Made by a program: the position numbers and the translations under genes. This document shows, piece after piece, positions 20,700-45,919 of a DNA stretch of 64,000 nt. The stretch's first letter is position 1; each line of letters opens with the position of its first letter. This stretch comes from Candidatus Thorarchaeota archaeon (GTDB lineage Archaea; Asgardarchaeota; Thorarchaeia; Thorarchaeales; Thorarchaeaceae): the NCBI GenBank assembly GCA_011364905.1, contig RDNZ01000001.1:32001-96000 (forward strand). The letters run 5' to 3'. The notes under the pieces were generated by a model. The model was not told where the DNA came from, did not search any database, and saw only the letters and a program-made list of their open reading frames with translations.

Positions 20700-20804
20700 G
20701 CCGTCAGCATTGGACGATTCTCACTTAACTGTTCTCCAAAACAGGCAAGTAAACGCTAGAATCTGAATCTCATTCGACCATTGCAAAGCACAAAATAGTA
20801 GAAG

Positions 20805-20827
20805 CCAGTTGGAAAGCATCCAACTGG
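20805..20827 (-). terminator. Perfect 9-bp hairpin downstream of the giant-protein pair (putative terminator or 3' stabiliser)
   Basis: ccagttgga-aagca-tccaactgg, 13 nt past the stop at 20841, followed on the minus strand by T-rich sequence. Confidence 0.55.
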
Positions 20828-20840
20828 TTCATTGATTTGA

Positions 20841-23800
20841 TTAGTCCAAGTCAATCCCTAGACTGCTTAAGAGGGCATCGAGGTCCGCCTTTGAGAGACT
20901 CTTTGCTTCTTCTAGAATGACATCAATCTCATCAATAGCCATTCCTTTCTTAATGAGCTTCTGTCGTAGATCCTCCAACTCCTCAGGTCTCTGTTCGAGA
21001 GGTATCTCCTCGGGAGCAGGTTTGCCCTCTGGTGGTTTGGCCAGCACATCAGCTCGACGAGCTTTTTCTTGCTCAATTACCTCCTTTAAGAATCCAGGAC
21101 GCTCACTTGCTCTCATTCTTGCCAAGTCTGCCCTAAAGGCATCCATCTCTAGAGCACCTAAGCCTGTAAGAGCTGCAAGTTCTTCGAGCAATTCATTAAC
21201 TTCAGGTACAGTGGTAACAATTGGATAATCGATAACCTCGTCTGGCGTCTTTACAAGCCTCAACGGGTGTATCTCCTCGTTCACTATCTCCCTCGCCAAT
21301 CCCTGTCTGGTTGGAGCGCTAGGTGGTTTAGGTATTCTCCCTTTGCTAAGAGCACGCATCATTCTGTTCATGTCTCTGATCTGCTTGGGAACACTCCAAA
21401 CCCTTACATAGACTACGATGAACAAAGCTACAAAGACCAGGGCAAATCCTCCCACAATGGTCAAGAATCGCTGAGCTTCCGCTTCTGCGCTTCTATCTGA
21501 CTTAATGTTGAGGACCAATTGTCCAGATGCGTAAGTATCCTTCTGGAAGTTGATTGTTATTGAGAATGTCCCAACTTCATCTACTCTAAAGAAGAGGGTA
21601 TAGATTCCATTTTCATCACGCTTCAAATTCTCCAGGTAGGTTATGTTGCCTTGGCTAAATACGGGTGATATGCTAGCATCAGGAATTCCAACAAGGTGGT
21701 CAAGGTCGTAGTATGTGATCTGAACCTCAATTCTTGCTCCTGGGCGTGTGTAGATAGTGTTGTTGGTAATGGTCAATGTCGTTGCTATGGGTCTAATTGT
21801 CAATTCAAGGTGTTTAGGAGCAATCGAGTATTTCCCTGTTCCAAAGTCTATGTCAAAGCTGTATGATCCATATGGAAGATCACTAGGAATATTCATTGAG
21901 TATGAACCATTTTCTAGGAGCTGGAGTGGAATATTGAACAGCTGAGTTGAGTAAGCAATACCATTTACATCAGTTACGGATGAATTATCTAAACGATTGA
22001 TAACGTTGTACAGAATACTGGATTGTTCATTAATAGGAACAGAGTACAGCTCTGGTCCCAATATATCTGCGGGAGTAACATAGATTTCAATCTTTGCGGT
22101 TACAACTCGAGAGGTGTAGTTGGTAAGATCAAATCGGACCACTAGATCATACAATCCTGGGTTCTCGACATTGATTGGTACATTAACCTCGTAAGATCCG
22201 TTTATATGTTGGATAACAACCAGATCTCCCCCTTCCCAACTGGCTAGCACATTGGCACCATAGATCAACGAGTTATGCTGAGTATCATTGTAGTAGAATA
22301 GAAATGATTTCGTGTCACCCCAATATCCGCTCTGTAGGATTGGGACTGCAGTTGCTTGAGTTGGTATAGGTAAGATAGTGATGACTATAGACTTGTATGC
22401 CGTAGCGTATCCCATTTTGTCTGCCGTCATCCGGAGGTATATGGATTGGCTCGCAAGTGAACTGACATCAATGAAAGCACTGTATGATCCATTTAGTAGA
22501 TCAGTGAAGGTACCACTCAAACTACCCAATGTGTATGATACTGTAGCACCAGAAACAAGTGCTGCATGGAAAGTATCATTGTATACCGCCGTCAAGGACA
22601 ATGAGTCGCCGAAAAAGACGTATCGGATCGTAGTTCCGTCTGACGACGCAATTGTTGTTGGAATTGGGACGATACGTATGTCAATGTTGGTCTCTATGAA
22701 CTGAACATTTGTGGTTACAGCTCTGATTGTCAATGGGAAGACACCAACAGCGAATCCGGTAACATCTACCGATCCAGTGTACCAACCTGGGACACCAGTG
22801 GGCGTAAGGCCAGTTACTGTTCCATTCCATTCCATTGTCACACTCGCACCAGTGACGGGTAAGTCAGTGACTGTGCTTCTCAAGTATAGATCGAAATCGA
22901 TTACATTGTCTATAACTGCGTCATAGGTTGACTGCAAAGGTACTATCTGACCAGGAGCTTTTGAAACCACGAGAGTGAATGATTTCTGTCTGGTTTGGTA
23001 AAACTCCCTTGATGCTGTAATCTGTGGATTGTAAATGCCAAAATCTGCATCTGACGTATCAAGCAGCAAGTAGTAAGAGCCGTCCCCAGCATCAACAAAG
23101 TCGTAGATTGTGCTAGCCCAAAGTAGGGTTGCATTGAATCCCTCTAGATAACTCAAGTAGAAGGGTTCTTGGACTCGGAAACTAATGTTTAGAACTTCTC
23201 CCCAATCTCCATAGTAAGTGGATTGAGTCAAGACAATTTGTACAAGTTGCGCACCAGGTTGTACCGCGACTTGCGCTTCAGCGACTTGATAGAAGTTCTT
23301 TGTGGCTGTCACGGTGATTGAATATTGTTGAGCAACCAGTCCGGTAGTGTTCAAGGTGAGCGAATACAACCCATTGCCATTCTCAACCCATTGATATGCA
23401 TTGCCAGTTATATCGGTCCAATCACACTGTATTACTGCGCCTTCTAGAATCGTTCCGTGGTCCAAATCTTCTAGGGTAAGGGCTATGTTAATTGGAACTC
23501 CAACTGCTGTTGAACCAGCTGGTGGTGCCTCAGCAAGAAGCGATGTATGGACTGCTCTGACCAGTGCGGGAACATTCAATGCACTTCGGTCTGAATAGAA
23601 TGGGGAACCAGTCCATGTTATTGTGATATTGAAGTACACAGTCCCTGGTGAGCTGAAAAGAGTTGTATTCAATGTTATTTGATAGACTCCGTTACCAAGA
23701 CTGCTTACATGATAATCAGGCGAAGACCAACTACTACAGAATAATGTAACAGTTGCACCTTCGATTCCATCACCTGTGAGAAAATCAATGTATTCGAGGT

Positions 23801-26800
23801 TCATTGTGATATTGTCAAAGTATGGGGTTTCCTCCACAAGTGGAAATAGAATCACAGTTGAACGATAAGTCGTTGATGCTTGCGTAGTTGCAGTTCTATC
23901 AGCATAGAAGGGTGAACCTGATGTCCAATCTATACTTAGTTGAATAGCATGACTTGTTACCAAACTAAACGCATCTAGAATGGTTGAATTGAAACTAATC
24001 TCGTAGTATGTTCCGAAATTCACAAGAGTATAGTCACCGGATGCTATCACAGTCTGACTGACTCCATGGCTCAAGGTTATGTCACTCTTGTCAATTGTGA
24101 TAAATGACTTATCTAAGAAGTCTTCAAACACAAACCTGAAGGATACATTCTCGAGGAATGGAGTGCTACCGGGAGTCTTCGTTATTCGAATTTGCGTCGG
24201 TCGTTCTATAATATTAGCAGACAGTGTTCGTCGCGATGATAGATAATAGGGCGCTCCTGAGAAGGATGTTGTTACATTGAGTTGAAATGTACCCGGTGGT
24301 CCGAGAGCCGCGGTGTCAATTTCAACCAGATAATCGCCATTACCATTGTCTGTGATCCAATAGTCCACGCCCAAGGTCAAAGTGAGAGGATCGCTTGTCA
24401 CCATGACTGATGCGCTAGTGATACCGATACCTGAGCTATCATCGGTGAATGTAATGACAAATGTAATGTTTGACTGATATGGTGCATTGTCTGGACTCTC
24501 ATAGCTCAACTGTGTTGACCTTTCTAGAACAGTGAAGGCGAAGTACTCGAAGTTGTCACTTACATAATTAGGTCCAGTGTATGCTATGCTTGCATTGATG
24601 TAGTGAACCCCAGGCGGACCAAACGCTGAGGAGTTCAAGACTACAGTGAAGTGACCATCAGACACTGGTGTTACATGATAGAAAGCAGCACCAATGTTCA
24701 GAGTGAGAGTACCAGTCATTGCAGTCGTTGTTCCTGAGATTATGTCGGTGTAGACGAACTGAATGGTGACATTGTTACCCCATTGCGCCGGAGTAAATGG
24801 TAGGTGCGTCAACTGAGAACTTCTAAGCAAAACCATGACTAAGAATTGCTGGTTTTGTACGTCAGCATAGAATGGTGTGCCACTCCAAGTCAGGTTGAGG
24901 TGAAGTGCGACTTGACCCACGCCACTTAGAGAGGAAGTATTGATGACTACTGTAAACTCATTAGTACCAGGATCAAAGGAGTAGGACCAATCAACTCCAG
25001 GCTCATTGATTTCGATATTCAATGATGCAGAGTCTGCAATCCGTTCTGTTCGGATGGAATCAACGAATGAAAACACAAGACTTGCGTCCTCACCATAGGC
25101 AGTCGGTGAAACGGGTGAATAATCAATGTACGTGGGGCGTTCAAGAACCATAAGGAAAACACTGATTGTTTGATTCTCATATAGCGGGAGGACTCCGGCA
25201 CTCCACAGAAAGCCGATATTCACTTGGAACAATCCTACACCTTCGAGATTTGTGCTGTTAAGATGGAACTCATAGAGTACAGTAGCTCCCTGATTAACGA
25301 TTTCAATGTGGAAATCGTCTCCAGTAACTGGATTCACGCCAATGGGTGTGAAGGAAAGTGACACAGCGCCAGTTACGTTTGAGATGTAGGTTGAGTTGAC
25401 CACATCATAGAACACAGCTGAGAATGTGAAGTTGTCCAGATAGTACGTGGCAACGGGAGCTGTTTCTAAATACAAGTCGGTTTCTGTGCCTATCAATCTA
25501 AACGTAGTGTCAAGAGTTCGAGATTGGAACTTTAGTACTGGTCCCGTCCAACTGATTTGGATAGAGATGTTTTTCCAACCGACAGTTGACCACTGTAAAG
25601 TTGGAACTGTGATATTATAATGACCTGAACCCAGATCGCTCACAGAATAGACCAGTATGGGCAAATCAGAGGGCGTGACTAGAATATGAACATAGCCAGA
25701 GCTATTATCTATACCTAAGTTTAAGTCTGAGTCAAGATAGTTGACTAGAATATATGCATCAACTCCATGCGGAGTCTGAAGTATTGGATCCTCAAGCGTA
25801 AACAGAGTTGAATGTGATCTAACTTGTACACTTATTGAAATCGTATGATTCTGCATCTTTGTACCAGAGAAGCTCACAGAAACTGAGGATGTTCCTAGCG
25901 GAGTGGAATCAGTTGTGAATATAGTGAGTCTATACAGTCCTACCGAAATCTCATTGATACTATAAGTACCGGACCAATCGCAGAGGATTGAATTGTTTAG
26001 ACCAGTGAGGGGTGTATTGTGGTCTGCATCAGTCCACTCGAAAGTCAATGAACCAGACTCGCCAACTGGAATTGCAACAACATTTTGCAGGTAGGTCACC
26101 TTTGTGTATAGTTCCCTGACTTCAACATAGAGCAGATACCGCTGGGGTAGAATATATGGTGCACTTCCTGTGATCTCTACAACATATTCTCCCATTGCAA
26201 CAAAGGTTGTATTGAGCCAGAACTTGTAGCTCCCTGGTGATCCTGCTACAGGCGTAACGCTATAGTAGCTAGACCAATTACAGTCGACAGTTCCCGAAAC
26301 AATTCGTGAACCGAGATAGTCCTCAAATCCTATCGTGAAAGAGCTGTTATATCCAGAGGGGATTGATAGTCCTGGCGAAACGGGTGCTTCAAGCATCAAA
26401 TTTGCATCGAAGTTGAGGTTTATTGTCAATACATCATGAACTGCATCGAAATAAGGATGAGTCCAGTCAAGATTCAGAGTGTACTGTCCTTTCTGAGGCA
26501 AGTCACCAGTATCAAGTGTAGCGATGTACTCACCATTGCCAGCTGTTCCGAAATACTCTGTACCAGTGGTCCAGTTATAGCTCATCTGCCCATCTGAAAC
26601 GGTCACTCCAGGAATATCAGTATCATTGATTTGAATTCTAATGAGAAACAGATCAGGATAGGTCACATTTGTTGTCCAGGTTACAATGGCATCCTTTGGA
26701 TTCAACAAGGTAGATTCGGATGCATGTATAATACTGAATGAACGACGGAAGAATCCAGTCTTGTTCCATGCAGAGCCTGATAGACTGTTGGAGCAAAATG

Positions 26801-28520
26801 CCTGAACAATCCACTCTCCAGCAGATGCATTGGCACCAAAGGTCAAGCTTCCAGAATTCGCATACCCAGTACTGTTTACTGTAGCCATCTCTGAGAACCA
26901 AGCTCCACCTGATGGTGAAAACACGGTTATATTGACTTGGACTCCTGCGAATTGAGCGCCAATGTCTACTGCAAAGAAGGCCGTATCAGATGCCCTGAGG
27001 TTCATCGTCTGAGCTGTAGTGCCGCTTCCAATATTGGTCATCAGCAAATCAGTGATCATGTTTGCGCCTTTACTTTTAACAAGCCAATATCCCCACCGGT
27101 CTGCATAGGGATAGGCAGTAACATTCGCAAACCAATCTGGACCATGTCCCTCATCCCATGAAGAGATGTTCACATTGGTTCGTAAGGGTGAGCCCACATA
27201 GTAAACATCCCGATTTTCAGGCAGAGAGATGTTGTAATAGTATCGATTATCATATCCCTCAGGAATGTCGGCGTAGAACCAAGTCAGGTACTCAACCAGT
27301 GAGGCATTCGTTGCCACAAAATTCTCTCCAAAGGATGTAGGGTCTTGAGTTGTAACCGTGGTTGATTCGCTTCTAGCATAGAGATTCGTTTCAACTGTAA
27401 ATTCAACCCATATGTTTCTGTTCGGGACTGGTGTTGATGGTGTGGGTGTCCAAGAGAAGGTCACATCAACAGGACTTGTGGTCCAAACTGACGTAGGATT
27501 CTGTGTGACATTACCAAGTCCAGGTACAGACGAGCCGCCGCTGATGAAATCATTAACATCGAGCCCGTTCATTTGCATGTTGAGATCGCTTGGGTCGGCC
27601 TTGGTCTTTAGATATAGCTCGAAGTTGTCAACACGTGCGTAGGGATTAAGGTCGGGATTATAGTTCACAGTCTGCTGGCTGTAAAGACCTACTGTAACAA
27701 GTACGCCATCTGACAGGTCGAAAATAGATAGGTCTGGGAGAGTAATCAATCCACTATCGTACCAAGTTTGGGCTTGATCAATATCAGGGAATGACTTTTG
27801 CCAAACACGCTGAGTGTAATCGTTCGTTTCAATTGAAACAAAGATAGCTACAAATCCATCTGCGCCCCAGTCAGAGTCAACCCAATAGTCCAGTCTAAAG
27901 CCTGCCCAAACAACGTCACCACGATTCACAGAGAAGGTTTGCTGAGCCCAGGCTCTCTCCCCTTCAGATGGGTCTCCACCGCCTGCGATCTCAAACTGAA
28001 CACAGTCATCTCCAGCACCATGTCCGTTGGCTAACCAGCTCGCCGATGGAGCTGCTCCTCCACCAATGCTCACCTGATTGAGAGACCAGCTAGATGGGCT
28101 GTTTTCCATATCGGGATCTTGGACCCATGTTCGATTCTCTGTAAGGTCAGATATTCCGGTAAATAGCTCATAGCCTTCCCAGTCAGTACCCATAGGAATC
28201 GAAACGGACTCACTATTGGTACTACTATTGCTTGAGAAGTATCTCATCTGATTGCTGGTGAAGGTATCGCTTCTATTTCCATACTCTTGTGCTGGCAATC
28301 CAGATGATGTACCAGACCACGTGGTCCAGCCTTGTTCAGCATTCAAATAGCCCGTTTCAGTAGGATTGGACATCGGAGAAGAGATTGTATCTTCCGGATT
28401 GGCCATACCATTGGTCGTTTTGCCGCTTTGTCCTTGTTGCAAACCAATATTCGCTGTAGCACTGAACACCATCAAGAATGTGATGAGTATCAATAGGGAT
28501 AGTCTATATCTTGTGTTCAT
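20841..28520 (-). CDS. Giant (2559 aa) single-pass cell-surface protein B: head domain + Ig-like repeats + cytoplasmic helical tail
   Basis: Signal peptide, ~100-aa repeats (G.Y.I.L.T..L, WTG.P.Y..R, F.Y.D), dense N-x-S/T sequons, one TM, ~180-aa charged tail. Confidence 0.88.
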   Translation of the reverse strand: MNTRYRLSLLILITFLMVFSATANIGLQQGQSGKTTNGMANPEDTISSPMSNPTETGYLNAEQGWTTWSGTSSGLPAQEYGNRSDTFTSNQMRYFSSNSSTNSESVSIPMGTDWEGYELFTGISDLTENRTWVQDPDMENSPSSWSLNQVSIGGGAAPSASWLANGHGAGDDCVQFEIAGGGDPSEGERAWAQQTFSVNRGDVVWAGFRLDYWVDSDWGADGFVAIFVSIETNDYTQRVWQKSFPDIDQAQTWYDSGLITLPDLSIFDLSDGVLVTVGLYSQQTVNYNPDLNPYARVDNFELYLKTKADPSDLNMQMNGLDVNDFISGGSSVPGLGNVTQNPTSVWTTSPVDVTFSWTPTPSTPVPNRNIWVEFTVETNLYARSESTTVTTQDPTSFGENFVATNASLVEYLTWFYADIPEGYDNRYYYNISLPENRDVYYVGSPLRTNVNISSWDEGHGPDWFANVTAYPYADRWGYWLVKSKGANMITDLLMTNIGSGTTAQTMNLRASDTAFFAVDIGAQFAGVQVNITVFSPSGGAWFSEMATVNSTGYANSGSLTFGANASAGEWIVQAFCSNSLSGSAWNKTGFFRRSFSIIHASESTLLNPKDAIVTWTTNVTYPDLFLIRIQINDTDIPGVTVSDGQMSYNWTTGTEYFGTAGNGEYIATLDTGDLPQKGQYTLNLDWTHPYFDAVHDVLTINLNFDANLMLEAPVSPGLSIPSGYNSSFTIGFEDYLGSRIVSGTVDCNWSSYYSVTPVAGSPGSYKFWLNTTFVAMGEYVVEITGSAPYILPQRYLLYVEVRELYTKVTYLQNVVAIPVGESGSLTFEWTDADHNTPLTGLNNSILCDWSGTYSINEISVGLYRLTIFTTDSTPLGTSSVSVSFSGTKMQNHTISISVQVRSHSTLFTLEDPILQTPHGVDAYILVNYLDSDLNLGIDNSSGYVHILVTPSDLPILVYSVSDLGSGHYNITVPTLQWSTVGWKNISIQISWTGPVLKFQSRTLDTTFRLIGTETDLYLETAPVATYYLDNFTFSAVFYDVVNSTYISNVTGAVSLSFTPIGVNPVTGDDFHIEIVNQGATVLYEFHLNSTNLEGVGLFQVNIGFLWSAGVLPLYENQTISVFLMVLERPTYIDYSPVSPTAYGEDASLVFSFVDSIRTERIADSASLNIEINEPGVDWSYSFDPGTNEFTVVINTSSLSGVGQVALHLNLTWSGTPFYADVQNQQFLVMVLLRSSQLTHLPFTPAQWGNNVTIQFVYTDIISGTTTAMTGTLTLNIGAAFYHVTPVSDGHFTVVLNSSAFGPPGVHYINASIAYTGPNYVSDNFEYFAFTVLERSTQLSYESPDNAPYQSNITFVITFTDDSSGIGITSASVMVTSDPLTLTLGVDYWITDNGNGDYLVEIDTAALGPPGTFQLNVTTSFSGAPYYLSSRRTLSANIIERPTQIRITKTPGSTPFLENVSFRFVFEDFLDKSFITIDKSDITLSHGVSQTVIASGDYTLVNFGTYYEISFNSTILDAFSLVTSHAIQLSIDWTSGSPFYADRTATTQASTTYRSTVILFPLVEETPYFDNITMNLEYIDFLTGDGIEGATVTLFCSSWSSPDYHVSSLGNGVYQITLNTTLFSSPGTVYFNITITWTGSPFYSDRSALNVPALVRAVHTSLLAEAPPAGSTAVGVPINIALTLEDLDHGTILEGAVIQCDWTDITGNAYQWVENGNGLYSLTLNTTGLVAQQYSITVTATKNFYQVAEAQVAVQPGAQLVQIVLTQSTYYGDWGEVLNISFRVQEPFYLSYLEGFNATLLWASTIYDFVDAGDGSYYLLLDTSDADFGIYNPQITASREFYQTRQKSFTLVVSKAPGQIVPLQSTYDAVIDNVIDFDLYLRSTVTDLPVTGASVTMEWNGTVTGLTPTGVPGWYTGSVDVTGFAVGVFPLTIRAVTTNVQFIETNIDIRIVPIPTTIASSDGTTIRYVFFGDSLSLTAVYNDTFHAALVSGATVSYTLGSLSGTFTDLLNGSYSAFIDVSSLASQSIYLRMTADKMGYATAYKSIVITILPIPTQATAVPILQSGYWGDTKSFLFYYNDTQHNSLIYGANVLASWEGGDLVVIQHINGSYEVNVPINVENPGLYDLVVRFDLTNYTSRVVTAKIEIYVTPADILGPELYSVPINEQSSILYNVINRLDNSSVTDVNGIAYSTQLFNIPLQLLENGSYSMNIPSDLPYGSYSFDIDFGTGKYSIAPKHLELTIRPIATTLTITNNTIYTRPGARIEVQITYYDLDHLVGIPDASISPVFSQGNITYLENLKRDENGIYTLFFRVDEVGTFSITINFQKDTYASGQLVLNIKSDRSAEAEAQRFLTIVGGFALVFVALFIVVYVRVWSVPKQIRDMNRMMRALSKGRIPKPPSAPTRQGLAREIVNEEIHPLRLVKTPDEVIDYPIVTTVPEVNELLEELAALTGLGALEMDAFRADLARMRASERPGFLKEVIEQEKARRADVLAKPPEGKPAPEEIPLEQRPEELEDLRQKLIKKGMAIDEIDVILEEAKSLSKADLDALLSSLGIDLD

Positions 28521-31500
28521 TCTTCCATCCCTCCAATCTCTTTTAGCAATGCATCTATTTCAGCCTTAGACAGGTTTCGGGCTTGTTCTATCATGAGATC
28601 AGCCTCTGTTTCTTCAATGCCCATTTTCAATAGACGCTCTTTCAAGTGAAGTAGTTCATCTTCTGAAAGACGCTCCTCAGCAACTTCAGCAGGGACTCCT
28701 TCCTCAGCAACCATCTCAGCTTCCGCAAGTTCTCTCGCCCGACGTGCACGCTCCTGTTTGAGAACCTCATTGATGAATCCAGCTCTCTCACTTGGCCGCA
28801 TCTTGTCAAGGTCTTGACGTAGAGTATCAATGTCATCAGGAGTCAAACCGACAACAGTGGCAAGCTGATCTAGAAGCAGTTCGACATCCATTACTGTGAC
28901 ATCAACTGTTGACAGCGCCACATCTTCCTCTGTCTTCTGGATTCTAATTGGCTTCAAATCATCATTCATCATTGCGAGAAGCATTTGGCGTCTCTGAGGA
29001 ACATCAGCAGGTTTCGGTATTTTGCCTTTTGACAGAGACCCTATCATTCTCCTAATGATTCGTAGCAGCTTTGGCACAGATAACACTCTGAAGTATAGTG
29101 CGCCTAAGGCAGCGAATAATACAAGAAGCATTGTGCCATTTCGGAACCATGCGACAAGTGCCTCTTGCTCAGGTGAGAAGCGAGTATAAACGTCAAGATT
29201 GACCTCTCCATCTGCATAGTTAACCCTGCTTAGAATGATTTTCAAGCTGTAGAGGGCTAACACGGGAGCACGAAATGCGATTGCATATGTTCCATTGTGG
29301 TAGTCGATATCAAGTTCTTCCACATGAACCAAATTTGCTGTTTGCACATTGTTGCTTGATCGGATTGTAATATCAGCATCCGTGATTGGTAAAGAGTGAT
29401 CACTGTCGAGATATGTGACATTTACGAAGAAGACACGACCGACATAGATAAATTCGGGCAAAGCAGAAGATACTAGCTCCGTCGCAATCCTGCGTATTTT
29501 CAAGGAAACATCAATCTCTCCTCTCGAGTAGTTTCCTCGAGATATGAAAATCCTGATTGTATAATTCTCGTCGCGATATTGTAGTGTTTGACCTAGATTC
29601 GCCTCCGTTGGACCGAAGACGTATGATCCGTTATTCAAATTGGTTAATTGAACGGCACCAAACTCCCAATATGCAGTAGCAAGACCGTCAGCTATCCAGT
29701 TTGCATGAAGGTCATCCCAATAACCAAATGTCATCGAGTAATCATCACCTACAGCAAACTCTGCTTCCGTTTTTCCGGTTAGCACGGTCCGAATTGGATT
29801 GACAAGCAGTTTCACCAATCCTGAAGCAAACCGAAAGTTCTCCTTTCGGAAGGAGATGGCTATGTTATGGGGAACAGTTCCTGCCTGAACAAGAGAAGTG
29901 TTAACCGTAAGTGAGTATGTACCATTGCCATAATCGAATAGCGAACCCTTGAACTGCTCTAATGTGTAGTTAGTAATCGCACCCGGTATTCCCTCGTCAG
30001 CATGGATATCATGGAAGACAAGAACAAATGTGACTTCCTCCCCATAATATCCACTAAGAGTGGCGTCAGTCACAATAACAATATCAGTATCGACAACTTC
30101 AACATTCAAAGTGAATTGGATTGATGAAGGCCTATAACCGTCCTTGTCACTCGAGATTATAACAGTCCATTCTTGGACACTAAGATCTGTGGTGTCAATA
30201 AGAGCACTGTAATACCCAGGCGTACCTAATTCGGTTAAATTCCCGACAAGCGGCCCTACACCATATGAGAGACGGGCACCGAGAACAGGTGTGTTTAGAT
30301 CTGTATTATTCAGATAAACAGTGATATTGGCAATATCACGGAAGTTCACAGTAACGACAAAATCTGAAACAGCTACAAGACTAGTGGAAAGCTCAGTGAT
30401 TTCAATTGTAAGTTGCATTGATACACTCTTGTAGTTGTCCGAGCTAGCTTGAATGAGAATCTGATGGGTACCTACAGAGGCTCCTGTAACAATAAAGTCC
30501 ACAACGTATTTTCCATCCGATGCAGACCACGGAATCTGTCCAGAACCTCCAACCCAACTATAGGTGACCTGACCATTCGTAATTGGTGAGCTGTCAGAGT
30601 ATATGAGATAATCCACTTGGAGATGGACACTCAATCCGTTGACGGTCGAAAGAGGATTGATCGATCCGGCAATTTTTGATGCAATCTTGCCAATTCGAAT
30701 TTGGAAATCTCTTTGCCTGCTCTCATAATTGAGGAGGACGGATCTCACTGTGACTGTGTGTTCACCAGCGACTATCTGCCAAGATTGCACGGTAACATTG
30801 TATATACCAGATCCAATATGAGTCATGTCGACTGTTATAGTTGAAATAGTCAGATTGACATATGCGCCAACAATGGGAGCTCCAGTTCTAGCATCTGTAA
30901 CATTGGCTTGGAAATTAATAGAGTCGCCCCAGGAGGGACTAGTAGGATTAAAGTCTAGCTCAATCTGAACTGGTACAGCTGAAAGGAGAATATCCGCGAG
31001 AATTGTATGATTTTGGTGCAAATACTTTGAGGCACTTACTGAGAATGAATACAAACCAGCATCCATTCCAGATGTTTGAATCGTCATTTCATAGACGCCG
31101 GTGTCAATTTCATGAATTGTTGCTATTGTTGGGTAAGTAGCGTTCCAATCACTCAAAACCGTCGCGCCTGGAATACCAACTCCAAATTCAATTGCAGTGT
31201 AGGTGATGTTGGCGTGGATTACATCTCCCAAGTAGTATGTTACACCTTGAGGCAGGGTGAAGCTAAGAGTCGTTGATACAGAATTAACAACCGCTGAAAA
31301 GCTTAGATTTGTTACATTTGTGTAATATGGAGAACCATACCAAGTCATATTGGCTGTGAAGAAATACCTGCCCAAACCAGACAATGTTGTGGTGTCTACC
31401 AGAATCTGATAAGTGCCATCACCATTGTCAATGATCCAATGCGTGAAACTTGTGGAATTTGCTGACTCTAATGAAACATCTGCCCCGGGGATTCCATTCC

Positions 31501-34500
31501 CGGTGAGATAGTCCTTGAAGTCAAGCAAGGCGCTGATATTGAAAAAGTAATACGCTGGTGGAGTTGATAGGACTGAGGCTTGAGTATACCGAGTGGAAAT
31601 TGTGACTTGAGTGGTTGTCGTGGAATTCTCATAATATGGCGTCATGTCGCCCCAGTGGAATTGAATAGTAATTGGGTACGCATCTTCTAGCTCTGAGGAT
31701 AGAAGTGTAGAATTGAAGGATATCAAATAGAATCCATCTTGTCCAGTGAGTGTATACTGAGAGTCGAGGATTACTGTGCCTCCTCCATGTGTGATGGTAA
31801 GAACAGATTTTGTCAGAGATATTCTAGTGCTATTCACATCATCCATAACGCTAATCTGGAATTCTACATTGCTCAGGAACGGAGTCGTTAAAGGCGAACG
31901 GGTCACCGACAGCGTTGCGTATCGTCTCACCACATCTATTTGGACATTCGTTATCCTACTCTGATAATATGGTGCGCCTGTTTTGCTTGCTGAGATTGCA
32001 ATGGTATATTCACCAAAGTTTCCTAAGGCAAGTGTTGAAATCCTGATGCGATAGTCGCCACCTGTTAGTGAATCAACCCAGTAGTTGACTCCGAGCTGAA
32101 GTGTAGCGTTGGAACAGGTCGCAGTAATGGTTGCGCCATCTATACCCGCGAGTGTGCTATCGTCAAAATAGGACACAAACACTTCAGCTTCCTCCAAGTA
32201 GACTGCAAGAGAGGGGACTTCGCTAGTTAGTTGAGTCCTTCTTTGGATAAGCGTTAGATAGAAGAAGTCAGTGGCATCAAAACAGAAGTTTGTGCCTGTG
32301 TAAGACATCGATGCATTGACCGTATAGGTTGCCAGTGATGGAAATGCGCTTGTATCAAGAGTCACTGTGAAAGTGCCATCTCCATTGTTTACAACGTTAT
32401 AGTATCCTAGTAGAGACGCATCTAGTGTCAAGCTTCCAGTGTTCAACAAGGACTGATCGTCAAGGTCTCTGTAAGTAAAGACGATAACCAAATCATTACC
32501 ATATTGAATTGAGGTGTATGGTCCATGTTCAAGATTCGTGTATCTACTCCGCACGGTCAGTGATATCGGAATGCTGGTTCGGTTCTGGTAGAATGGGGTA
32601 CCAGTCCACATCACATCGAGATGAAGTGTGAAGGTTCCAACGTTGCTCCACCATGTTGTATCAAGCTCCAATACATACTCTTGACTACCCGGTAGATAGA
32701 TAGCGCTAAGAACAAGTCCGGTCTCCTGAACCTGATAATTCAATTGAGGATCATCGGAAATCGGCAGGCCTGTTAGAACATCGATGTAGGAGAAAGTCAG
32801 ATTGACATTATCTCCATATGGAGTGGTTGGGAGAGGTTCCCATAGAATGCTTGTTTGCCTGTATCTGGTATTCACTGCTACGGTCAGTGATCTGTTTTCG
32901 TAGAGCGGAAGCTGTCCAGATGTCCAATTTGCAGAGATTCGAATCTCACATGTAATGATACCGCTAAGATAATTTGTATCGAAGGTTATTTGATATTCTC
33001 CATTACCTAGTTCGGAGATCACCATCAGGTCTTGGGTTAATGTCTGACCTGGTGTAAGGACTTCAATATAGAAGTGCACATTCAAGGGATAGTCTCCAGT
33101 ACTATTGGTTATCCCAGTACTGTTACTAATGTCCCAATATACAACCGAGAAGGTGACATTTTCCCCATAAGGAGTGGCAACTGGATTCGTTCCTATGTAC
33201 AAATCAGATGGACTTCCAGCGATTCTTGCGCTTACCTGCAGCACTTTGTTATCGTGCGCTGGTTGTGGACCAGTCCAATTTGCATAGAGTGTTATATCCT
33301 TCCTGCCAATCGACCCCCATTGATCAGCTCTTATTCTAACTATGTACTGACCAGCTATTGAACCATTTACAACTGTATACTCAAGTGACGGTACACCCAC
33401 GGCTTCAGCATAAATCAAGACATTGCTGCTGACAATTCCTTGTGATGTTGTAATGTCATAATACATCACGTAAATCGTAATTTGACCAGTGTAAGGCGTT
33501 GGTTCGATGGGATTATCTAAGGAGAAAGAAGTCAAATGAGTGATTATATCAATACCAATGCTGAAGGTATGGTTCTGGTAGGCAAAGCGGTTAACATCGA
33601 AGACCACGGAGTAGTCCTGAATAGGATCAGATTCAGCTGAGTAAAACGTTATGCTGTATTCACCTGGTGCACTGGCTGCCACAATGTAACTTGACCAGTT
33701 GCATGAGATGGAACTCTCTGCACCCGATATCGGAAGATCGTGATCAGTATCCCAGTATGTCAGTGTAATGGTTTCTTCATAACCAACTGGGAGAGATATG
33801 CCGCTCTGGGAAACTGAAACTGAAGTGAAGATCTGTCGCACTTCAACAAATAGAAGAACCTGAGAAGTAGTGTAGTAATTCTGCTCTGCTGTGACGACAA
33901 CCGCATAGGTGCCCAAGTTGGAATTTCCTGTAGTAATCGTAAGAGTGTAGTTACCAGGTGCTCCAGCTACTGGATTGACGGTGTAGGATGAATCTGTCCA
34001 ATTACATGTTAGAACTGCACCACCAATACCCGCGTCTTCCGAGTCTGCGTAGAAGAGTTCGAGAACTGCATTGTCTCCTCGGGGCACTTGTACCCCAGGA
34101 GCACTACTGGATTGTAATGTTGTTTCTTCAACGACATTTATCACAAAATACGTTTGGAGTGAATCGTAGTACTGCTTACTCCATGAAATGCCTATCACAT
34201 ATCGACCAGGGAGTCCCAAATCTGCTGTGTTGACAACAACACTGTACTCACCAGTACCCATATCATTCAGGATGCGTGTTCCAGTAGTCCAGTTGTATGT
34301 TGCAGAACCTCCTGGAAGGAGAAGACCATTATTGGAGTCATTTACACCAATCTGAAGAAGCATATCTTGACCATAGGTGAGATTTCGTTCCCAGGAAGTA
34401 ACAGATTGCCTGGGATAGGCAATATACATGTCAGATCCATGTTCAATTGTAAACGACCGTGAATACAAACCGATGTTCTCAACGGGACTACCTGAAACAG

Positions 34501-36211
34501 AATCATTCACGAATGCTTGTACCGACCATTGCCCTACTTCAGCTGTGAAGGCATCAAGATTCAAGTCGGTCGTTTCAGCAATCCCTGAAGACACCGTTGC
34601 TGCCACTGTGTCCCATAGGTTGCCCATTGTGTCATAGACGTTGAATGTAACAGTCGCACCGTTGTAAACGGTATCAAGATAGGCTTGGAAGCGAACATTG
34701 TCATTAGCCCGATACGTGTTTGTAGTGACCCAACTGGCACCACTTGACATTCTCAAGTCTTGAATTATGTTCGCTGAATGCCCTGTTATTTTCCAGAATC
34801 CATTCTGATAGGTCCCGACAACTCCATCATAAACTGAAATGTTCAAGCTTGTTGCAGTGGTGGACCAATATGGGAAATTGACGGATGGGAATCGAGGTTC
34901 TGATACAGTATCAATAACCAGAGTATCAGATTTACTTGCATTGAAGTAGAATAACTGGGAATAACCGTTTGGGACAGCAACGTAATAATATGTAATCCAG
35001 TTTACTTGGCTGGCATTACTGGTCGTGAAGTGAGTGCCCAGACTCTGAACATCAGCTTCATAGAGTGAGGACTGGTCAACTTTTCTTGCATATACCGTCA
35101 TGTCGACAGAAAAAGTGACACGAATATCATCATTAGGGTTGGGATTTACTGGAGTCGGAGTCCAGCTGAATGTTGCATTCACTGCACTTCCACTCCATGG
35201 GATAGCTGCAGATTCCTGAACTGTGCCTAAACTCCATGTAGCGCCATTGGACACGGGAATGCCATTCATTTCCAAGTTTACTTGACTTGGTTGCACTCGA
35301 GTCTTTATGAAGATTCTAACATTGTCCATCCTCACCTCTGGGTAGAGCTGAGGATTGCTTCCGAATGATCTTGTAGTCCTCATTCCAATTTGCAGAATGA
35401 AGTTGGATGATGTGATGAGTGAAGGGTCAGCCTCGATTAAGCCTGTGGAGTACCAAGTTGTTTGTGCAAGAACATCACTGAACTGCATGTCCCACAGATG
35501 GTTTGATACATTATCATTGTGGCCAATTTGAGCGTATAGCTCCCAAAAACCAATGGGCAGACCGCCCCAATTATCATCAACCCAGTAATCAAGTGAAACG
35601 CCAACCCATGTGACTTCACCACGATTGGTATTGATTGTTTGCTCCGCATACTGTCTATCGCCAAGGTCATGGCGGTAGTAGCCTCCATCCAACACACCGT
35701 CCATCTGAAAGCTGACATACCCACCAGTTATTGTAGAAGACATAGGATTTGTGTGAGTTGGCAAATCATCATAGCCAGTTGTCCAGTCCGCTGCTGAACC
35801 AAAACCGGGGTTGGTAAGATAGGTTCGATTCTCCTGAAGGTCACTCACACTGATGGATGTGTCAGTACCTTCCCAAAGAGGACCGAGAGGAACAGAAACA
35901 GTCTGAGTTGTGGTAGTATTTGTAGGATAATAAGCAAGGTCCAGGTTTGAGTGGTGATCCGTCCTTTGCCCATATTCCGACACTACCATAGGAGACCCTT
36001 CGCCTGAAACTGTTGTTGGGACCTCAGAAAGAGAATAAGAATTCAGGACCTCATCTGGCCCAACTTCAACGGTCTGACCATTGCCTAGATCTACCTGTTT
36101 TGCTCCAGGCGCAGAGGAAGTTGGGGTGGCATTATGAGTCATAGGGGCTCCAAGACTCACAAGTAGAGACGCCATCACGAGAAATAGAAACAGGGTCCTT
36201 TTGACTTTCAT
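28517..36211 (-). CDS. Giant (2564 aa) single-pass cell-surface protein A, paralogue of 20841-28520
   Basis: Co-linear with its neighbour from head to tail; ATGA stop/start overlap at 28517-28520. Confidence 0.88.
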   Translation of the reverse strand: MKVKRTLFLFLVMASLLVSLGAPMTHNATPTSSAPGAKQVDLGNGQTVEVGPDEVLNSYSLSEVPTTVSGEGSPMVVSEYGQRTDHHSNLDLAYYPTNTTTTQTVSVPLGPLWEGTDTSISVSDLQENRTYLTNPGFGSAADWTTGYDDLPTHTNPMSSTITGGYVSFQMDGVLDGGYYRHDLGDRQYAEQTINTNRGEVTWVGVSLDYWVDDNWGGLPIGFWELYAQIGHNDNVSNHLWDMQFSDVLAQTTWYSTGLIEADPSLITSSNFILQIGMRTTRSFGSNPQLYPEVRMDNVRIFIKTRVQPSQVNLEMNGIPVSNGATWSLGTVQESAAIPWSGSAVNATFSWTPTPVNPNPNDDIRVTFSVDMTVYARKVDQSSLYEADVQSLGTHFTTSNASQVNWITYYYVAVPNGYSQLFYFNASKSDTLVIDTVSEPRFPSVNFPYWSTTATSLNISVYDGVVGTYQNGFWKITGHSANIIQDLRMSSGASWVTTNTYRANDNVRFQAYLDTVYNGATVTFNVYDTMGNLWDTVAATVSSGIAETTDLNLDAFTAEVGQWSVQAFVNDSVSGSPVENIGLYSRSFTIEHGSDMYIAYPRQSVTSWERNLTYGQDMLLQIGVNDSNNGLLLPGGSATYNWTTGTRILNDMGTGEYSVVVNTADLGLPGRYVIGISWSKQYYDSLQTYFVINVVEETTLQSSSAPGVQVPRGDNAVLELFYADSEDAGIGGAVLTCNWTDSSYTVNPVAGAPGNYTLTITTGNSNLGTYAVVVTAEQNYYTTSQVLLFVEVRQIFTSVSVSQSGISLPVGYEETITLTYWDTDHDLPISGAESSISCNWSSYIVAASAPGEYSITFYSAESDPIQDYSVVFDVNRFAYQNHTFSIGIDIITHLTSFSLDNPIEPTPYTGQITIYVMYYDITTSQGIVSSNVLIYAEAVGVPSLEYTVVNGSIAGQYIVRIRADQWGSIGRKDITLYANWTGPQPAHDNKVLQVSARIAGSPSDLYIGTNPVATPYGENVTFSVVYWDISNSTGITNSTGDYPLNVHFYIEVLTPGQTLTQDLMVISELGNGEYQITFDTNYLSGIITCEIRISANWTSGQLPLYENRSLTVAVNTRYRQTSILWEPLPTTPYGDNVNLTFSYIDVLTGLPISDDPQLNYQVQETGLVLSAIYLPGSQEYVLELDTTWWSNVGTFTLHLDVMWTGTPFYQNRTSIPISLTVRSRYTNLEHGPYTSIQYGNDLVIVFTYRDLDDQSLLNTGSLTLDASLLGYYNVVNNGDGTFTVTLDTSAFPSLATYTVNASMSYTGTNFCFDATDFFYLTLIQRRTQLTSEVPSLAVYLEEAEVFVSYFDDSTLAGIDGATITATCSNATLQLGVNYWVDSLTGGDYRIRISTLALGNFGEYTIAISASKTGAPYYQSRITNVQIDVVRRYATLSVTRSPLTTPFLSNVEFQISVMDDVNSTRISLTKSVLTITHGGGTVILDSQYTLTGQDGFYLISFNSTLLSSELEDAYPITIQFHWGDMTPYYENSTTTTQVTISTRYTQASVLSTPPAYYFFNISALLDFKDYLTGNGIPGADVSLESANSTSFTHWIIDNGDGTYQILVDTTTLSGLGRYFFTANMTWYGSPYYTNVTNLSFSAVVNSVSTTLSFTLPQGVTYYLGDVIHANITYTAIEFGVGIPGATVLSDWNATYPTIATIHEIDTGVYEMTIQTSGMDAGLYSFSVSASKYLHQNHTILADILLSAVPVQIELDFNPTSPSWGDSINFQANVTDARTGAPIVGAYVNLTISTITVDMTHIGSGIYNVTVQSWQIVAGEHTVTVRSVLLNYESRQRDFQIRIGKIASKIAGSINPLSTVNGLSVHLQVDYLIYSDSSPITNGQVTYSWVGGSGQIPWSASDGKYVVDFIVTGASVGTHQILIQASSDNYKSVSMQLTIEITELSTSLVAVSDFVVTVNFRDIANITVYLNNTDLNTPVLGARLSYGVGPLVGNLTELGTPGYYSALIDTTDLSVQEWTVIISSDKDGYRPSSIQFTLNVEVVDTDIVIVTDATLSGYYGEEVTFVLVFHDIHADEGIPGAITNYTLEQFKGSLFDYGNGTYSLTVNTSLVQAGTVPHNIAISFRKENFRFASGLVKLLVNPIRTVLTGKTEAEFAVGDDYSMTFGYWDDLHANWIADGLATAYWEFGAVQLTNLNNGSYVFGPTEANLGQTLQYRDENYTIRIFISRGNYSRGEIDVSLKIRRIATELVSSALPEFIYVGRVFFVNVTYLDSDHSLPITDADITIRSSNNVQTANLVHVEELDIDYHNGTYAIAFRAPVLALYSLKIILSRVNYADGEVNLDVYTRFSPEQEALVAWFRNGTMLLVLFAALGALYFRVLSVPKLLRIIRRMIGSLSKGKIPKPADVPQRRQMLLAMMNDDLKPIRIQKTEEDVALSTVDVTVMDVELLLDQLATVVGLTPDDIDTLRQDLDKMRPSERAGFINEVLKQERARRARELAEAEMVAEEGVPAEVAEERLSEDELLHLKERLLKMGIEETEADLMIEQARNLSKAEIDALLKEIGGMEE

Positions 36212-36312
36212 ATTGAGGCCTCCTCACTAGGCACGAATACTACCAAATCGACTGGCTGATTGACTAATGATTTACCTCTATATGAATAGATGCGTTATAG
36301 TGTGAGTCATAG

Positions 36313-36449: not shown

Positions 36450-38630
36450 TTATTCTCTCTTTCGAATTACAATGACACCGACTATTACAATAACGGCTGC
36501 AATACTTCCTGCAACGATTATCGGTGTCAGAATATACGGAGGTGTATTTGTGGTAGTGCTAGTTGGTGTTGATGAAGCCGCACTAAGATGTGTCAAAACT
36601 CCTCCTTCTGCTCTATTCATCCCCCAATCCCAAGCAACCACCCATATAGTAAGATTTGAGGTGTGCTCCAAGAAGGGAACTGACACTGACCAATTATATC
36701 CGTTATAAGCCATTGGAAAGCTACGAACAACACCATCATCTACCTGAACATAGAGTGTGACATTCTCCAATCCTGCAAGATTTTCGCTAATCATCGCCCA
36801 GTAGGTGAAAGGGCCAGTCCAAAAGTCGCTTGGATTAGTACCTCGACCATATATCGACGGAGGTATGTCATCAATTGACGAAAACATCATTCTTCGAGTC
36901 CAATCTCGAGCTTTTACCAAAGCACTGTATGCTGAATGCCAGTCCATTTCATTGTAGGAATTTCTTGCAGATTCAAATGAAGCAAGAGCAGCAGATTCCG
37001 CGGCATAGGTTACGCCTCTCTCATCGGATCGAAGATTGGATTGCTCCTCAAGAAAGTTTGACCATAGAAGAGCTTCCATCTGGTCCAAATAGGTCCCCTG
37101 AACCCAGTTCTTCTCAAAAGTGGAGGTACCGTTGTGTTCAGCAAAGTATCCCATAGGTCCGTAATAGAAGTCACTTGAATAGTGCTCATGTTGCCAAGAG
37201 TGCGCAAATCCGATTGCATGCATGGTCTCATGAAGTTGAGTGGCTGATATTCCATCCTTGGGAGTCACACCATCCGGGCGATAATAACGTTCCCAAGATT
37301 TCCAGATGACTGTCTGTCCTCCTCCACCCAGTCCGGTGTACGCTCTTCCATAGACATGCATTTCCATTTGCTTCTTTATGAAGACAACTCCAAACACATT
37401 GATGTTGTCGTCATTAACCACATATGCGGGTCTCATTCCACTGTAGATAGCATTAAACATGGACCCACCATCAACAATTGTTGTTCCATCTAAGTTATCT
37501 GCGGCGTATGTCCAGAACAGGCTGTTCCAAGAAGGTTCTTCATCGATGTCTAGATATTGGACATCAACCTCCCATTGAATGAAGGGATAGAGTTCCTCAA
37601 GATGCGCCTTTTGCATCTCAGCGTTGGTCACCCATTCGAGGCTATTGACAGAGGTCCCATCAGCTACATCCATGCAAAACACCAGCACCTTCAGTCTACC
37701 AACATCAACATACTTTGCAGGCTGATGCTGATATGGGAAAAGTAGTTGGCTGATAGGGTCCCAGATGCACTCTCTCAAGTAAACATTGAGTGCATCTACA
37801 TCTGCAGGTATGTCTAAGTTGAGAGATCCCACTTTGTCCTCTAAATCTTGAGTCCAGAAATCGTAAGACGTATTGATTTCTTCGCTCCACCAAACCTTGC
37901 ACCATTTCAAGTACCACTGATGAGCACTAGGGTCCACTACATACAGATTATAGCGTCCACCGAAGAACGGATAGTCCATCGTGACATTCGGATTCAGAGC
38001 GTTGTCCCACTCCAATCTAAACCAGTCTTGATTCTGTCCCGTATCAGGATCAAGGGGGTGGTAGTTGTACCAATGTTCCAGACTGTGATCCGCGCTGTCA
38101 AACTCCGAGAAATTAACAAGATAAAGAGTGTACCCAAGATCAGGCGGACTCGTGTATGGATTCTCTTCTAGCCAATCCTCCACTGCATAGCCATCAATGG
38201 CACGACCTGCTCGAGGATAGAATATTCGTTGTGGTTCGTCGAGGTTGTCCTTCTGATATAGTAGTGCGCTCTCATCAAGGCCTGTCCCTGTTTCGCTTCC
38301 ATTTATGGAATTGTCAAGCATGACTTGGCGAAGTTCGTCGTTGTATGCAGCATCTGCATAGACGATTTGATACTCGATATTATAGGTGATTTGAGCTGCT
38401 TCTGTAGAAAAGTTCCTGATTGTTGGTAAATCCTGTAATAGTAACGGTTCATCAATTAGAGAAGGATCATAACCCACTACGATGATATTAGCTGTCCAGT
38501 TTCTCTCAATTGGTTGAGGCCCCTGACTAAGAGTAGCTTGCTTTACTGGCTGTCTGTGATTATCTTGCACACCAAAAGGAGTGGCAATCACAAGCACTAA
38601 AGCAATACCTAGGACAAGAGCACGACGCAT
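36450..38630 (-). CDS. Membrane-anchored metzincin-like zinc metalloprotease
   Basis: Signal peptide (MRRALVLG), HETMHAIGFAH = HExxHxxGxxH, downstream PMGY Met-turn, Ig-like domain, S/T linker, C-terminal TM. Confidence 0.8.
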   Translation of the reverse strand: MRRALVLGIALVLVIATPFGVQDNHRQPVKQATLSQGPQPIERNWTANIIVVGYDPSLIDEPLLLQDLPTIRNFSTEAAQITYNIEYQIVYADAAYNDELRQVMLDNSINGSETGTGLDESALLYQKDNLDEPQRIFYPRAGRAIDGYAVEDWLEENPYTSPPDLGYTLYLVNFSEFDSADHSLEHWYNYHPLDPDTGQNQDWFRLEWDNALNPNVTMDYPFFGGRYNLYVVDPSAHQWYLKWCKVWWSEEINTSYDFWTQDLEDKVGSLNLDIPADVDALNVYLRECIWDPISQLLFPYQHQPAKYVDVGRLKVLVFCMDVADGTSVNSLEWVTNAEMQKAHLEELYPFIQWEVDVQYLDIDEEPSWNSLFWTYAADNLDGTTIVDGGSMFNAIYSGMRPAYVVNDDNINVFGVVFIKKQMEMHVYGRAYTGLGGGGQTVIWKSWERYYRPDGVTPKDGISATQLHETMHAIGFAHSWQHEHYSSDFYYGPMGYFAEHNGTSTFEKNWVQGTYLDQMEALLWSNFLEEQSNLRSDERGVTYAAESAALASFESARNSYNEMDWHSAYSALVKARDWTRRMMFSSIDDIPPSIYGRGTNPSDFWTGPFTYWAMISENLAGLENVTLYVQVDDGVVRSFPMAYNGYNWSVSVPFLEHTSNLTIWVVAWDWGMNRAEGGVLTHLSAASSTPTSTTTNTPPYILTPIIVAGSIAAVIVIVGVIVIRKRE

Positions 38631-38754
38631 AGTGTTCCCTGCCTTCTTCACCATATTAACAAACTGGTTCATGTAACCGCAACCAAACCACATTTGGCGC
38701 TTAATGAATATATACGCACATATTATATTAGGAAATATGATACTATTATCCTCG

Positions 38755-45752: not shown

Positions 45753-45919
45753 CCACTGGCCTCCGATGAGAAGCTGGTAACTAGGCCGGAGTTTATGCCA
45801 CAAAACGCAACTTCCCAACTTTGCTGTCTTCTCATACGTAGTATTATCTATTTCAGGAAATGGTGTTCGAACTGGAACGCCAACAGGTGCATGAATTTAC
45901 CAGTCATAGGGTGATGTTT

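Follow-up and report, generated by a model that had tools for sequence, protein, structure and literature searches.

Introduction

Cultured Asgard archaea have no ordered surface layer (S-layer) but bear 'complex surface proteins' of unknown identity on their cell bodies and protrusions, and these proteins are thought to mediate the cell-cell contacts that are central to models of eukaryogenesis (PMC9834061). Elsewhere among the archaea, PySLP of Pyrobaculum arsenaticum is a 292-kDa S-layer protein with ~19 immunoglobulin (Ig)-like domains and a C-terminal transmembrane (TM) helix, six parallel Ig-array chains of which form a 37-nm pillar whose height is set by the length of the stalk (bioRxiv 10.64898/2026.08.21.746120). 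Here we analyse two adjacent giant genes, A and B, encoding predicted surface proteins of a Candidatus Thorarchaeota archaeon. They lie in a stretch of 64,000 nucleotides (nt), hereafter the window, that covers positions 32001-96000 of contig C15 in assembly G000 (3.08 Mb, 95 contigs).

Tandem giant genes that resemble their neighbours were mentioned in passing for Thorarchaeota by Wu et al. (2022; PMC8813620, Extended Data Fig. 7), who listed proteins of >3000 amino acids (aa) and noted a distant relation to the giant genes of Heimdallarchaeal Aloposons, giving neither anatomy nor function (PMC8813620). Aloposons are integrated elements beside a tRNA gene, with four conserved upstream genes that include a MinD/ParA-like ATPase (PMC8813620). 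In periscope proteins, stalk length varies through near-identical DNA repeats (PMC9704523).

A preliminary description of the locus had taken the near-equal lengths of A and B as a sign that their stalks must stay in register, as in an obligate heterodimer. We find that A and B very probably act as one functional unit, and we lean slightly towards the reading that they are coupled subunits of one fixed-height surface assembly with an intracellular docking tail. The evidence includes the coupled layout of the two genes, their joint inheritance, the age and symmetry of their duplication, the constancy of their stalk lengths and a regional match of their evolutionary rates, with PySLP as a precedent.

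Results

Two giant genes are joined in one coupled unit

Both genes are read from the minus strand, with A upstream of B. The following features define the unit:

36219..36225, minus strand: Shine-Dalgarno-like GAGGAGG of A, 7 nt before the A ATG
28517..36211, minus strand: gene A, encoding a giant type-I membrane surface protein of 2564 aa and lying first in the pair
28530..28534, minus strand: GGAGG ribosome-binding site of B, within the penultimate Gly-Gly codons of A, 9 nt before the B ATG
28517..28520, minus strand: ATGA start/stop overlap of the B ATG with the A TGA, a sequence indicative of translational coupling
20841..28520, minus strand: gene B, encoding the paralogue of 2559 aa, built like A and lying second in the pair
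20803..20829, minus strand: terminator-like hairpin with an 11-bp stem and a 5-nt loop, then a T-rich run, 12 nt after the B stop

The two giant open reading frames (ORFs) and their overlap were recovered as first described, coordinates included. The translational coupling proposed at that stage is likewise borne out, the ATGA and the internal GGAGG being kept in the family: GGAGG recurs in the last codons of A across all genus-level orthologues, and GAGGAG is conserved ahead of the A orthologues. A 238-nt spacer, which contains the GAGGAGG, separates A from the upstream gene, and A therefore probably has its own promoter. As the idea of a shared downstream hairpin implies, the single 11-bp hairpin follows B and no comparable hairpin was found at the A-B junction. 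A hairpin is present at the same place after B in most relatives, with stem sequences that differ in G003, G012 and G001. A and B are real genes rather than chance ORFs, because full-length orthologues (matches at E ≤ 1e-150) occur in 65 of the 87 genomes of the order.

A and B share a head, a 17-repeat stalk, a membrane helix and a conserved tail

A and B align by BLASTP in one collinear alignment of 2553 columns, with 32% identity and 5% gaps. Each protein starts with a typical signal peptide, as read from the sequence, and contains few cysteines (5 in A, 6 in B); N-x-S/T sequons number 54 in A and 53 in B. The parts of the two proteins are as follows:

34412..36034, minus strand: head of A (residues ~60-600), all-beta, predicted N-terminal jelly-roll and then beta-sandwich domains
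29207..34411, minus strand: stalk of A, built of 17 Ig-like repeats that have diverged and measure ~100 aa each (residues 601-2335)
29081..29140, minus strand: TM helix of A (residues ~2358-2377), a hydrophobic stretch in the alignment and a long helix (123-153) in the model
28520..29080, minus strand: cytoplasmic tail of A, ~187 aa, with two three-helix modules, the second of them C-terminal, and a basic motif next to the membrane, SVPKxxR...KGKIPKP
21522..26696, minus strand: stalk of B, in which each of 17 Ig-like repeats has its counterpart in A (residues 609-2333)
20844..21467, minus strand: TM helix (residues 2352-2372) and cytoplasmic tail of B, from the alignment

An iterated repeat hidden Markov model placed 17 repeats of ~100 aa at matching positions in each protein (residues ~600-2335). 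The repeat-by-repeat collinearity noticed earlier holds despite the divergence, since all 17 repeats are matched and the best B partner of an A repeat is the repeat of the same number in 14 of the 17 rows. Scores between A and B repeats average 134 on the diagonal and 47 off it, and the off-diagonal mean of A against itself is also 47; the 17-repeat array therefore predates the whole-gene duplication. The last repeat of A, R17, was modelled as an Ig-like domain with a predicted local distance difference test (pLDDT) score >90. It aligns with domains of STM14_2015, FdeC, invasin and filamin (VIA-align Z 9.3-10.2, root-mean-square deviation 2.1-3.0 Å over 91-101 residues), a likeness of shared fold only, and is also similar to the Ig domain of SbsC (VIA-align Z 9-10). 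A Pfam scan of full-length A and B returned nothing above threshold (at best, Big_6 at 13.4 bits, cutoff 27.6; Filamin at 12.6, cutoff 26.9). Tandem Repeats Finder gave 0 rows for the A/B coding DNA, in which the longest direct repeat is 27 nt.

For the head, the AlphaFold2 model of A residues 40-700, built from a 19-row alignment, is all-beta with a mean pLDDT of 76.9. Its Foldseek matches comprise Eph receptor ectodomains, the MAM-Ig-FN part of RPTPmu, CBM4 and an alginate-binding carbohydrate-binding module, together with archaeal S-layer Ig arrays (8c8o and 7ptp), the N. maritimus S-layer being among the matches. The model thus points to a jelly-roll followed by beta-sandwich domains. Elsewhere in the window (42252-45818, minus strand), a 1188-aa protein with a Laminin_G_3 domain is 21% identical to the A head over 551 residues (E 3e-10), so that the head module appears to be reused in shorter surface proteins of the same neighbourhood.

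The model of A residues 2225-2564 (pLDDT 81) comprises the Ig-like R17, a long membrane helix and the helical tail. By sequence comparison the tail is the best-conserved part of A and B: G000 and G008 share 85% identity in the A tail and 81% in the B tail, but 38-68% in the modules outside the cell. The tail alone gave no Pfam family, no PDB sequence match and no usable ESM Atlas match, and structure searches with the C-terminal model of A were dominated by matches to its Ig domain (model residues 16-121), not to the helical tail. A match to the tail was found in only 141 of 1.84 billion cluster representatives. It is C-terminal in every case, most of these proteins are giant or are fragments of giant ones, and the tail is thus restricted to this family.

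The pair is inherited together and its stalk length is fixed

We extracted 27 complete A-B pairs from at least 12 genera in two families; an earlier alignment set comprised 21 sequences, and the wider sets the 27 pairs. All relatives retrieved by protein search come from metagenome-assembled genomes of Candidatus Thorarchaeota or Promethearchaeota, which bears out the Asgard origin presumed in the preliminary description. A precedes B, adjacent and on the same strand, in all 27 pairs. The overlap is 4 nt in most of them and 1 nt in G042, G065 and G066, and a 4-nt gap takes its place in G025. Wherever a contig covers both positions, either both genes or neither were found, and the apparent lone A or B genes sit at contig ends. 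The pair is wholly absent from several near-complete genomes of the same genus, such as G024 (99% completeness). Two complete pairs stand in tandem in G075 (C22:1-30700), in the order A1-B1, a 298-nt spacer, A2-B2; its A copies are 56% and 46% identical to A of the window, and the pair there was duplicated as a block.

In the maximum-likelihood tree, G025_A falls within the A clade and G025_B within the B clade (Shimodaira-Hasegawa-like approximate likelihood-ratio test 99), so that the duplication which separated A from B took place before these families diverged. The A and B parts of the tree agree in topology, resemble each other in branch lengths and mirror each other across genera, and the locus itself is syntenic.

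More than 88 orthologues of A were recovered. Orthologues of A measure 2564-2624 aa, or 2879-2914 aa where a propeller is inserted, and those of B 2554-2629 aa. Between conserved alignment anchors, the stalks of the 27 pairs span 1743-1768 aa in A and 1733-1755 aa in B, a variation of at most 1.5% with an A-B difference of -5 to +27 aa. Both stalks have 17 repeats, a number that is invariant over at least 12 genera, and the 21 sequences show no insertion or deletion of ≥6 residues between residues ~470 and 2285, save a small one at 841. The sole large one is an insertion of ~290 aa at residue ~152 of the A head, found in 10 of the 27 pairs (genera g15, g18, g23, g24 and g26 and part of g1) and never in B. 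According to precomputed Pfam hits it is a six-bladed beta-propeller of the NHL/SGL type, which by its distribution would be either ancestral with repeated loss or gained more than once.

A and B share regional constraints in register

Rate covariation was assessed by removing the mean phylogenetic signal from module-wise distance matrices of 27 genomes and correlating the residuals of A module i with those of B module j. Over these related genomes, whose residuals are not independent, the stalk diagonal averaged 0.34 and the off-diagonal -0.01, and 0 of 20,000 permutations came up to the diagonal mean. For modules that adjoin each other in a single chain the value was 0.33 (A) and 0.27 (B), on par with the A-B diagonal. 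The covariation falls into three blocks, distal (head to R3), middle, and proximal (R9 to tail). A and B thus share lineage-specific regional constraints in register, a pattern that fits their lateral association.

Candidate assembly and its alternatives

In the fixed-height assembly that we lean towards, A and B derive from an ancient whole-gene tandem duplication. One transcript would serve both, with a promoter and Shine-Dalgarno sequence before A, the Shine-Dalgarno sequence and ATG of B inside the end of A, and one hairpin after B; this arrangement would yield roughly equal amounts of the two proteins. Each would be exported by its Sec signal peptide, would probably be heavily N-glycosylated, to judge from the number of sequons, and would be held in the membrane by its one C-terminal helix. 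The 17-module stalk would rise from the membrane to an estimated ~60-70 nm if extended at 3.5-4 nm per module, and would carry a distal all-beta head, a lectin-like or receptor-like jelly-roll. The conserved ~190-aa helical tail most likely docks a cytoplasmic partner. With stalks parallel from the same membrane plane, the assembly could be a fibre, a pillar or a canopy, in which the diverged heads would offer two surfaces for the binding of presumed ligands. Contact between A and B, and its stoichiometry, we infer. Physical association in register is tenable but tentative, and a strict 1:1 heterodimer is unlikely. Still more doubtful is a specific version in which an in-register hetero-oligomeric transmembrane receptor or adhesin binds partners or substrates with two different distal heads 60-70 nm out, one of which has a beta-propeller in many lineages; inside the cell its family-specific tails would relay this to, or take their position from, a partner such as the cytoskeleton or the machinery for membrane remodelling of Asgard cells.

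Several observations weigh against the fixed-height assembly. The covariation is broad and not module-sharp: it is 0.29-0.30 at an offset of ±1 and falls slowly with offset (0.30, 0.24, 0.23), and equal exposure at equal height, with no contact, would give the same pattern. Small changes of stalk length in A and B are only weakly correlated (r = 0.27), and the losses of matched cysteines described below are uncoupled between A and B. Pairs of unequal members provide a control within the family, E/F (5894 + 3983 aa) and C/D (~4100 + 3170 aa) in G000 and relatives; their orthologue lengths are stable too (C 4086-4145, D 3141-3187, F 3975-4011 aa), with partners 900-1900 aa apart. Total lengths of A and B themselves are 260-330 aa apart in the 10 insert-bearing pairs, although the stalks are still matched. 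In G063 the A gene has three frameshifts yet remains 57-64% identical from end to end, and B is undamaged; the A gene could be a recent pseudogene or reflect an error in long-read assembly. In G073, a single-contig assembly, the pair is truncated and split between two places. Neither is a stable lone orthologue. Finally, the Lokiarchaeal cells imaged so far show unordered surface densities and no lattice (PMC9834061); no Thorarchaeon is known to have been imaged.

The unequal pairs also bear on what equal length can mean. Since they are as length-stable as A/B and DNA repeats are absent, equal length does not imply stalks in register, and this step of the preliminary description fails. Length stasis looks like a property of the family, one that fits the diverged repeats and the absence of DNA repeats, and whole-gene duplication plus such general stasis suffices for the equal length of A and B. 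Single orthologues, or orthologues of unmatched length, had been named in advance as the finding that would count against a dimer; the stalks provide no such case, and the mismatch is confined to the total lengths of the insert-bearing pairs.

The most serious rival, to which we give a substantial but clearly smaller share of belief, is that A and B are independent, co-displayed paralogues: monomeric or homo-oligomeric adhesins or receptors with different ligands, co-expressed for convenience and equal in length by inheritance. Their length would persist through constraint on each diverged repeat and a lack of DNA repeats for slippage, and perhaps also because both heads must reach the same height. 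Much of what has just been set out suits this account, namely the length stability of the unequal pairs, the lack of repeats at the DNA level, the weak correlation of stalk lengths and a block-wise covariation that equal exposure without contact could produce. So do the diverged heads, with the propeller in A only, and the uncoupled cysteine losses described below. It is less at ease with adjacency and overlap that are strictly kept at divergence down to 32% identity, with the block duplication in G075, with the presence of both genes or neither in the genomes searched, and with a matched-module covariation as strong as that of neighbours in one chain. Adhesins that act independently, moreover, tend to vary over time in copy number and linkage.

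An S-layer-like lattice or pillar, that is, a hetero-oligomeric layer of the PySLP kind (e.g. A3B3 pillars) that fixes the height of a pseudo-periplasm, is improbable. The Ig array with a C-terminal TM anchor, as in PySLP, the matches of the head model to the archaeal S-layer proteins 8c8o and 7ptp, and the invariant stalk length would all be expected of such a layer. Those matches, however, are to generic Ig arrays, and S-layer proteins are not known to have a conserved cytoplasmic tail of 190 aa. Some near-complete genomes in the genus, G024 for one, are without the pair, which would be odd for the main envelope layer; the genome also carries several further giant pairs, and cultured Asgard relatives are without ordered S-layers.

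Last, the preliminary description had pointed to cysteines at matching stalk positions, A736/B747 (CNWT/CNWS) and A837/B847 (CNWS/CDWS), in repeats 2 and 3. They are indeed present, one per repeat at identical positions in A and B, and are kept within the genus (19-21 of the first 21 sequences); they are not conserved across the family. Over the 27 pairs, the cysteine of repeat 2 is lost in 7 A and 5 B, with only 2 genomes common to both, and that of repeat 3 in 4 A and 8 B. Its place is taken by T, S, V, I, L or A, as is typical of a strand position. The matched cysteines are not an obligatory disulfide, either between chains or within one. Each cysteine directly precedes an N-W-S/T sequon, and its side chain probably faces the domain core. 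The host organisms are anaerobes. A covalent heterodimer through these cysteines is hardly credible, a disulfide cross-link of A and B being ruled out by the uncoupled losses.

A second cysteine pair, at A residues 1310 and 1366 (window ~32112-32284) on the R7/R8 boundary, occurs in most A orthologues and in G025_B, and both residues are absent from genus-level B. This pattern would fit an intrachain disulfide lost as a pair, although in a wider alignment 15 of 28 B sequences have cysteine in the column of 1366, which blurs it.

Overall, the heterodimer of the preliminary description is plausible with one of its supports, the cysteines, removed: coupling, co-inheritance, block duplication and the regional match of rates stand, and the cross-link and the argument from length to register fall.

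Related giant pairs

In G000, G001, G002 and G013, nearly all giant genes that bear this tail are in tandem pairs, and the partnerless ones lie at a contig end; G025 has one apparently single tail-bearing gene, of 4431 aa. The E/F pair is located outside the window (G000 C87:19604-49227) and has the same tail type. Its junction resembles that of A/B, with E ending in ...GKGGEEE* and a GGAGG 9 nt before an ATGA overlap, and the three-helix module at the C-terminal end of the tail is present four to five times in F.

The upstream genes (A, C, E) and the downstream genes (B, D, F) were considered as two ancient clades, a division that would reveal an ancestral unit of two subunits. The tail tree opposes this division, as A groups with B and C with D; the A/E and B/F junctions and endings point the other way, the extreme C-termini matching across pairs (A ...GGMEE with E ...GGEEE; B ...GIDLD with F ...IDADLD). 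Two histories can be considered: either a coupled pair was ancestral and was copied as one block, its tails being homogenised later, or tandem duplication happened repeatedly. Selection seems to favour two-gene units under either.

Further giant surface proteins in G000 are a tandem pair of 1373 + 1882 aa (C54:500-11200) and the product of a gene of 1322 aa on C88. They have a different conserved cytoplasmic tail, KRRFDDADNxIG..HKxSGIPIYS..., and no match in Pfam.

Neighbouring genes

The gene directly upstream of A is the following:

36450..38693, minus strand: 747-aa gene, frequent upstream neighbour of A, no Pfam match

In many genera, most genomes have it immediately next to A, on its upstream side and in the same orientation. 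It is on another contig than the pair in G001, G062, G054 and G090, and 6-9 kb away in G091 and G025. A role of its product in the processing of A and B is possible.

The flanking genes that Pfam names are housekeeping genes (class I W/Y tRNA synthetase, CoA ligase, UbiA, LPG_synthase_TM). The first of these is the next gene past B (19611-20699). Between it and the hairpin lies a genus-conserved motif, TCTTGGAGAAAAGTTAAGTGAGA (window 20740-20790, minus strand), which may be the promoter or leader of the synthetase gene.

Discussion

The A/B locus offers a concrete and widely conserved surface-protein candidate in Thorarchaeia, two coupled giant predicted glycoproteins with a length-locked stalk. 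Surface proteins of archaea that are giant, built of Ig repeats and TM-anchored are already known, and what sets A and B apart is the length-locked coupled pair together with the family-specific tail. That the best conservation is found in the cytoplasmic tail is unusual among prokaryotic surface proteins; its partner, once known, would tell whether Asgard cells link their surface to internal machinery. If the receptor-like version were true, it would be a prokaryotic analogue of integrin-type outside-in/inside-out coupling, independently arisen in those archaea that are most closely related to eukaryotes. With A and B, nature also provides a clean test case of whether paralogues retained after duplication stay heteromers. 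We regard A/B as a lead, not a demonstrated mechanism.

Among known systems, the integrins resemble A/B in their logic: two type-I chains cross the membrane once each, their large ectodomains stand on beta-sandwich domains that serve as legs, a distal head (with a beta-propeller in some A orthologues) would bind ligands, and the tails could dock partners. Integrins are non-covalent heterodimers in which alpha has an FG-GAP seven-bladed propeller and beta a beta-I (von Willebrand factor A (VWA)-like) domain with a metal ion-dependent adhesion site. The differences are considerable: integrin alpha and beta are mutually unrelated whereas A and B are full-length paralogues, the A/B stalks are 4-5 times longer, and the propeller of A is NHL-type and optional. 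A Pfam scan of A and B at E ≤ 1 gave no FG-GAP, Integrin_alpha2, Integrin_beta or VWA match, and the NPxY feature of integrins is absent from both. The likeness is an analogy of logic only.

The giant Ig-repeat adhesins of bacteria (invasin/intimin/FdeC, SiiE-type) have the same order of head, stalk and anchor, the Big/filamin Ig-like fold and a lectin-like distal domain; they are anchored in the cell wall or outer membrane, unlike A and B with their TM helix and cytoplasmic tail. Periscope proteins are the opposite case, as the A/B repeats are ancient, invariant in number and without DNA repeats. The giant genes of Aloposons belong to mobile elements; the neighbours of A and B that Pfam names are housekeeping genes, and the syntenic locus and mirrored trees suggest that the pair is vertically inherited.

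SlaA and SlaB of Sulfolobales are two co-transcribed S-layer proteins, unrelated in sequence and size, of which only SlaB is membrane-anchored. They would resemble A/B, on the S-layer account, as two co-transcribed proteins of one envelope structure; A and B differ from them in being both anchored, paralogous and of equal design.

In architecture, PySLP appears to be the closest working analogue of A/B. Signal peptide, Ig-like array and C-terminal TM helix are common to both. PySLP also has a lattice-forming core and trimer-stacking domains; structure searches with the A models, in a copy of the PDB older than its deposition, gave no PySLP match. PySLP is the product of one gene, forms homo-hexamers and belongs to Thermoproteota. 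The Thorarchaeal locus has two genes instead, coupled and paralogous, and adds to a 17-repeat stalk a head of the jelly-roll kind and a cytoplasmic tail that is long and conserved.

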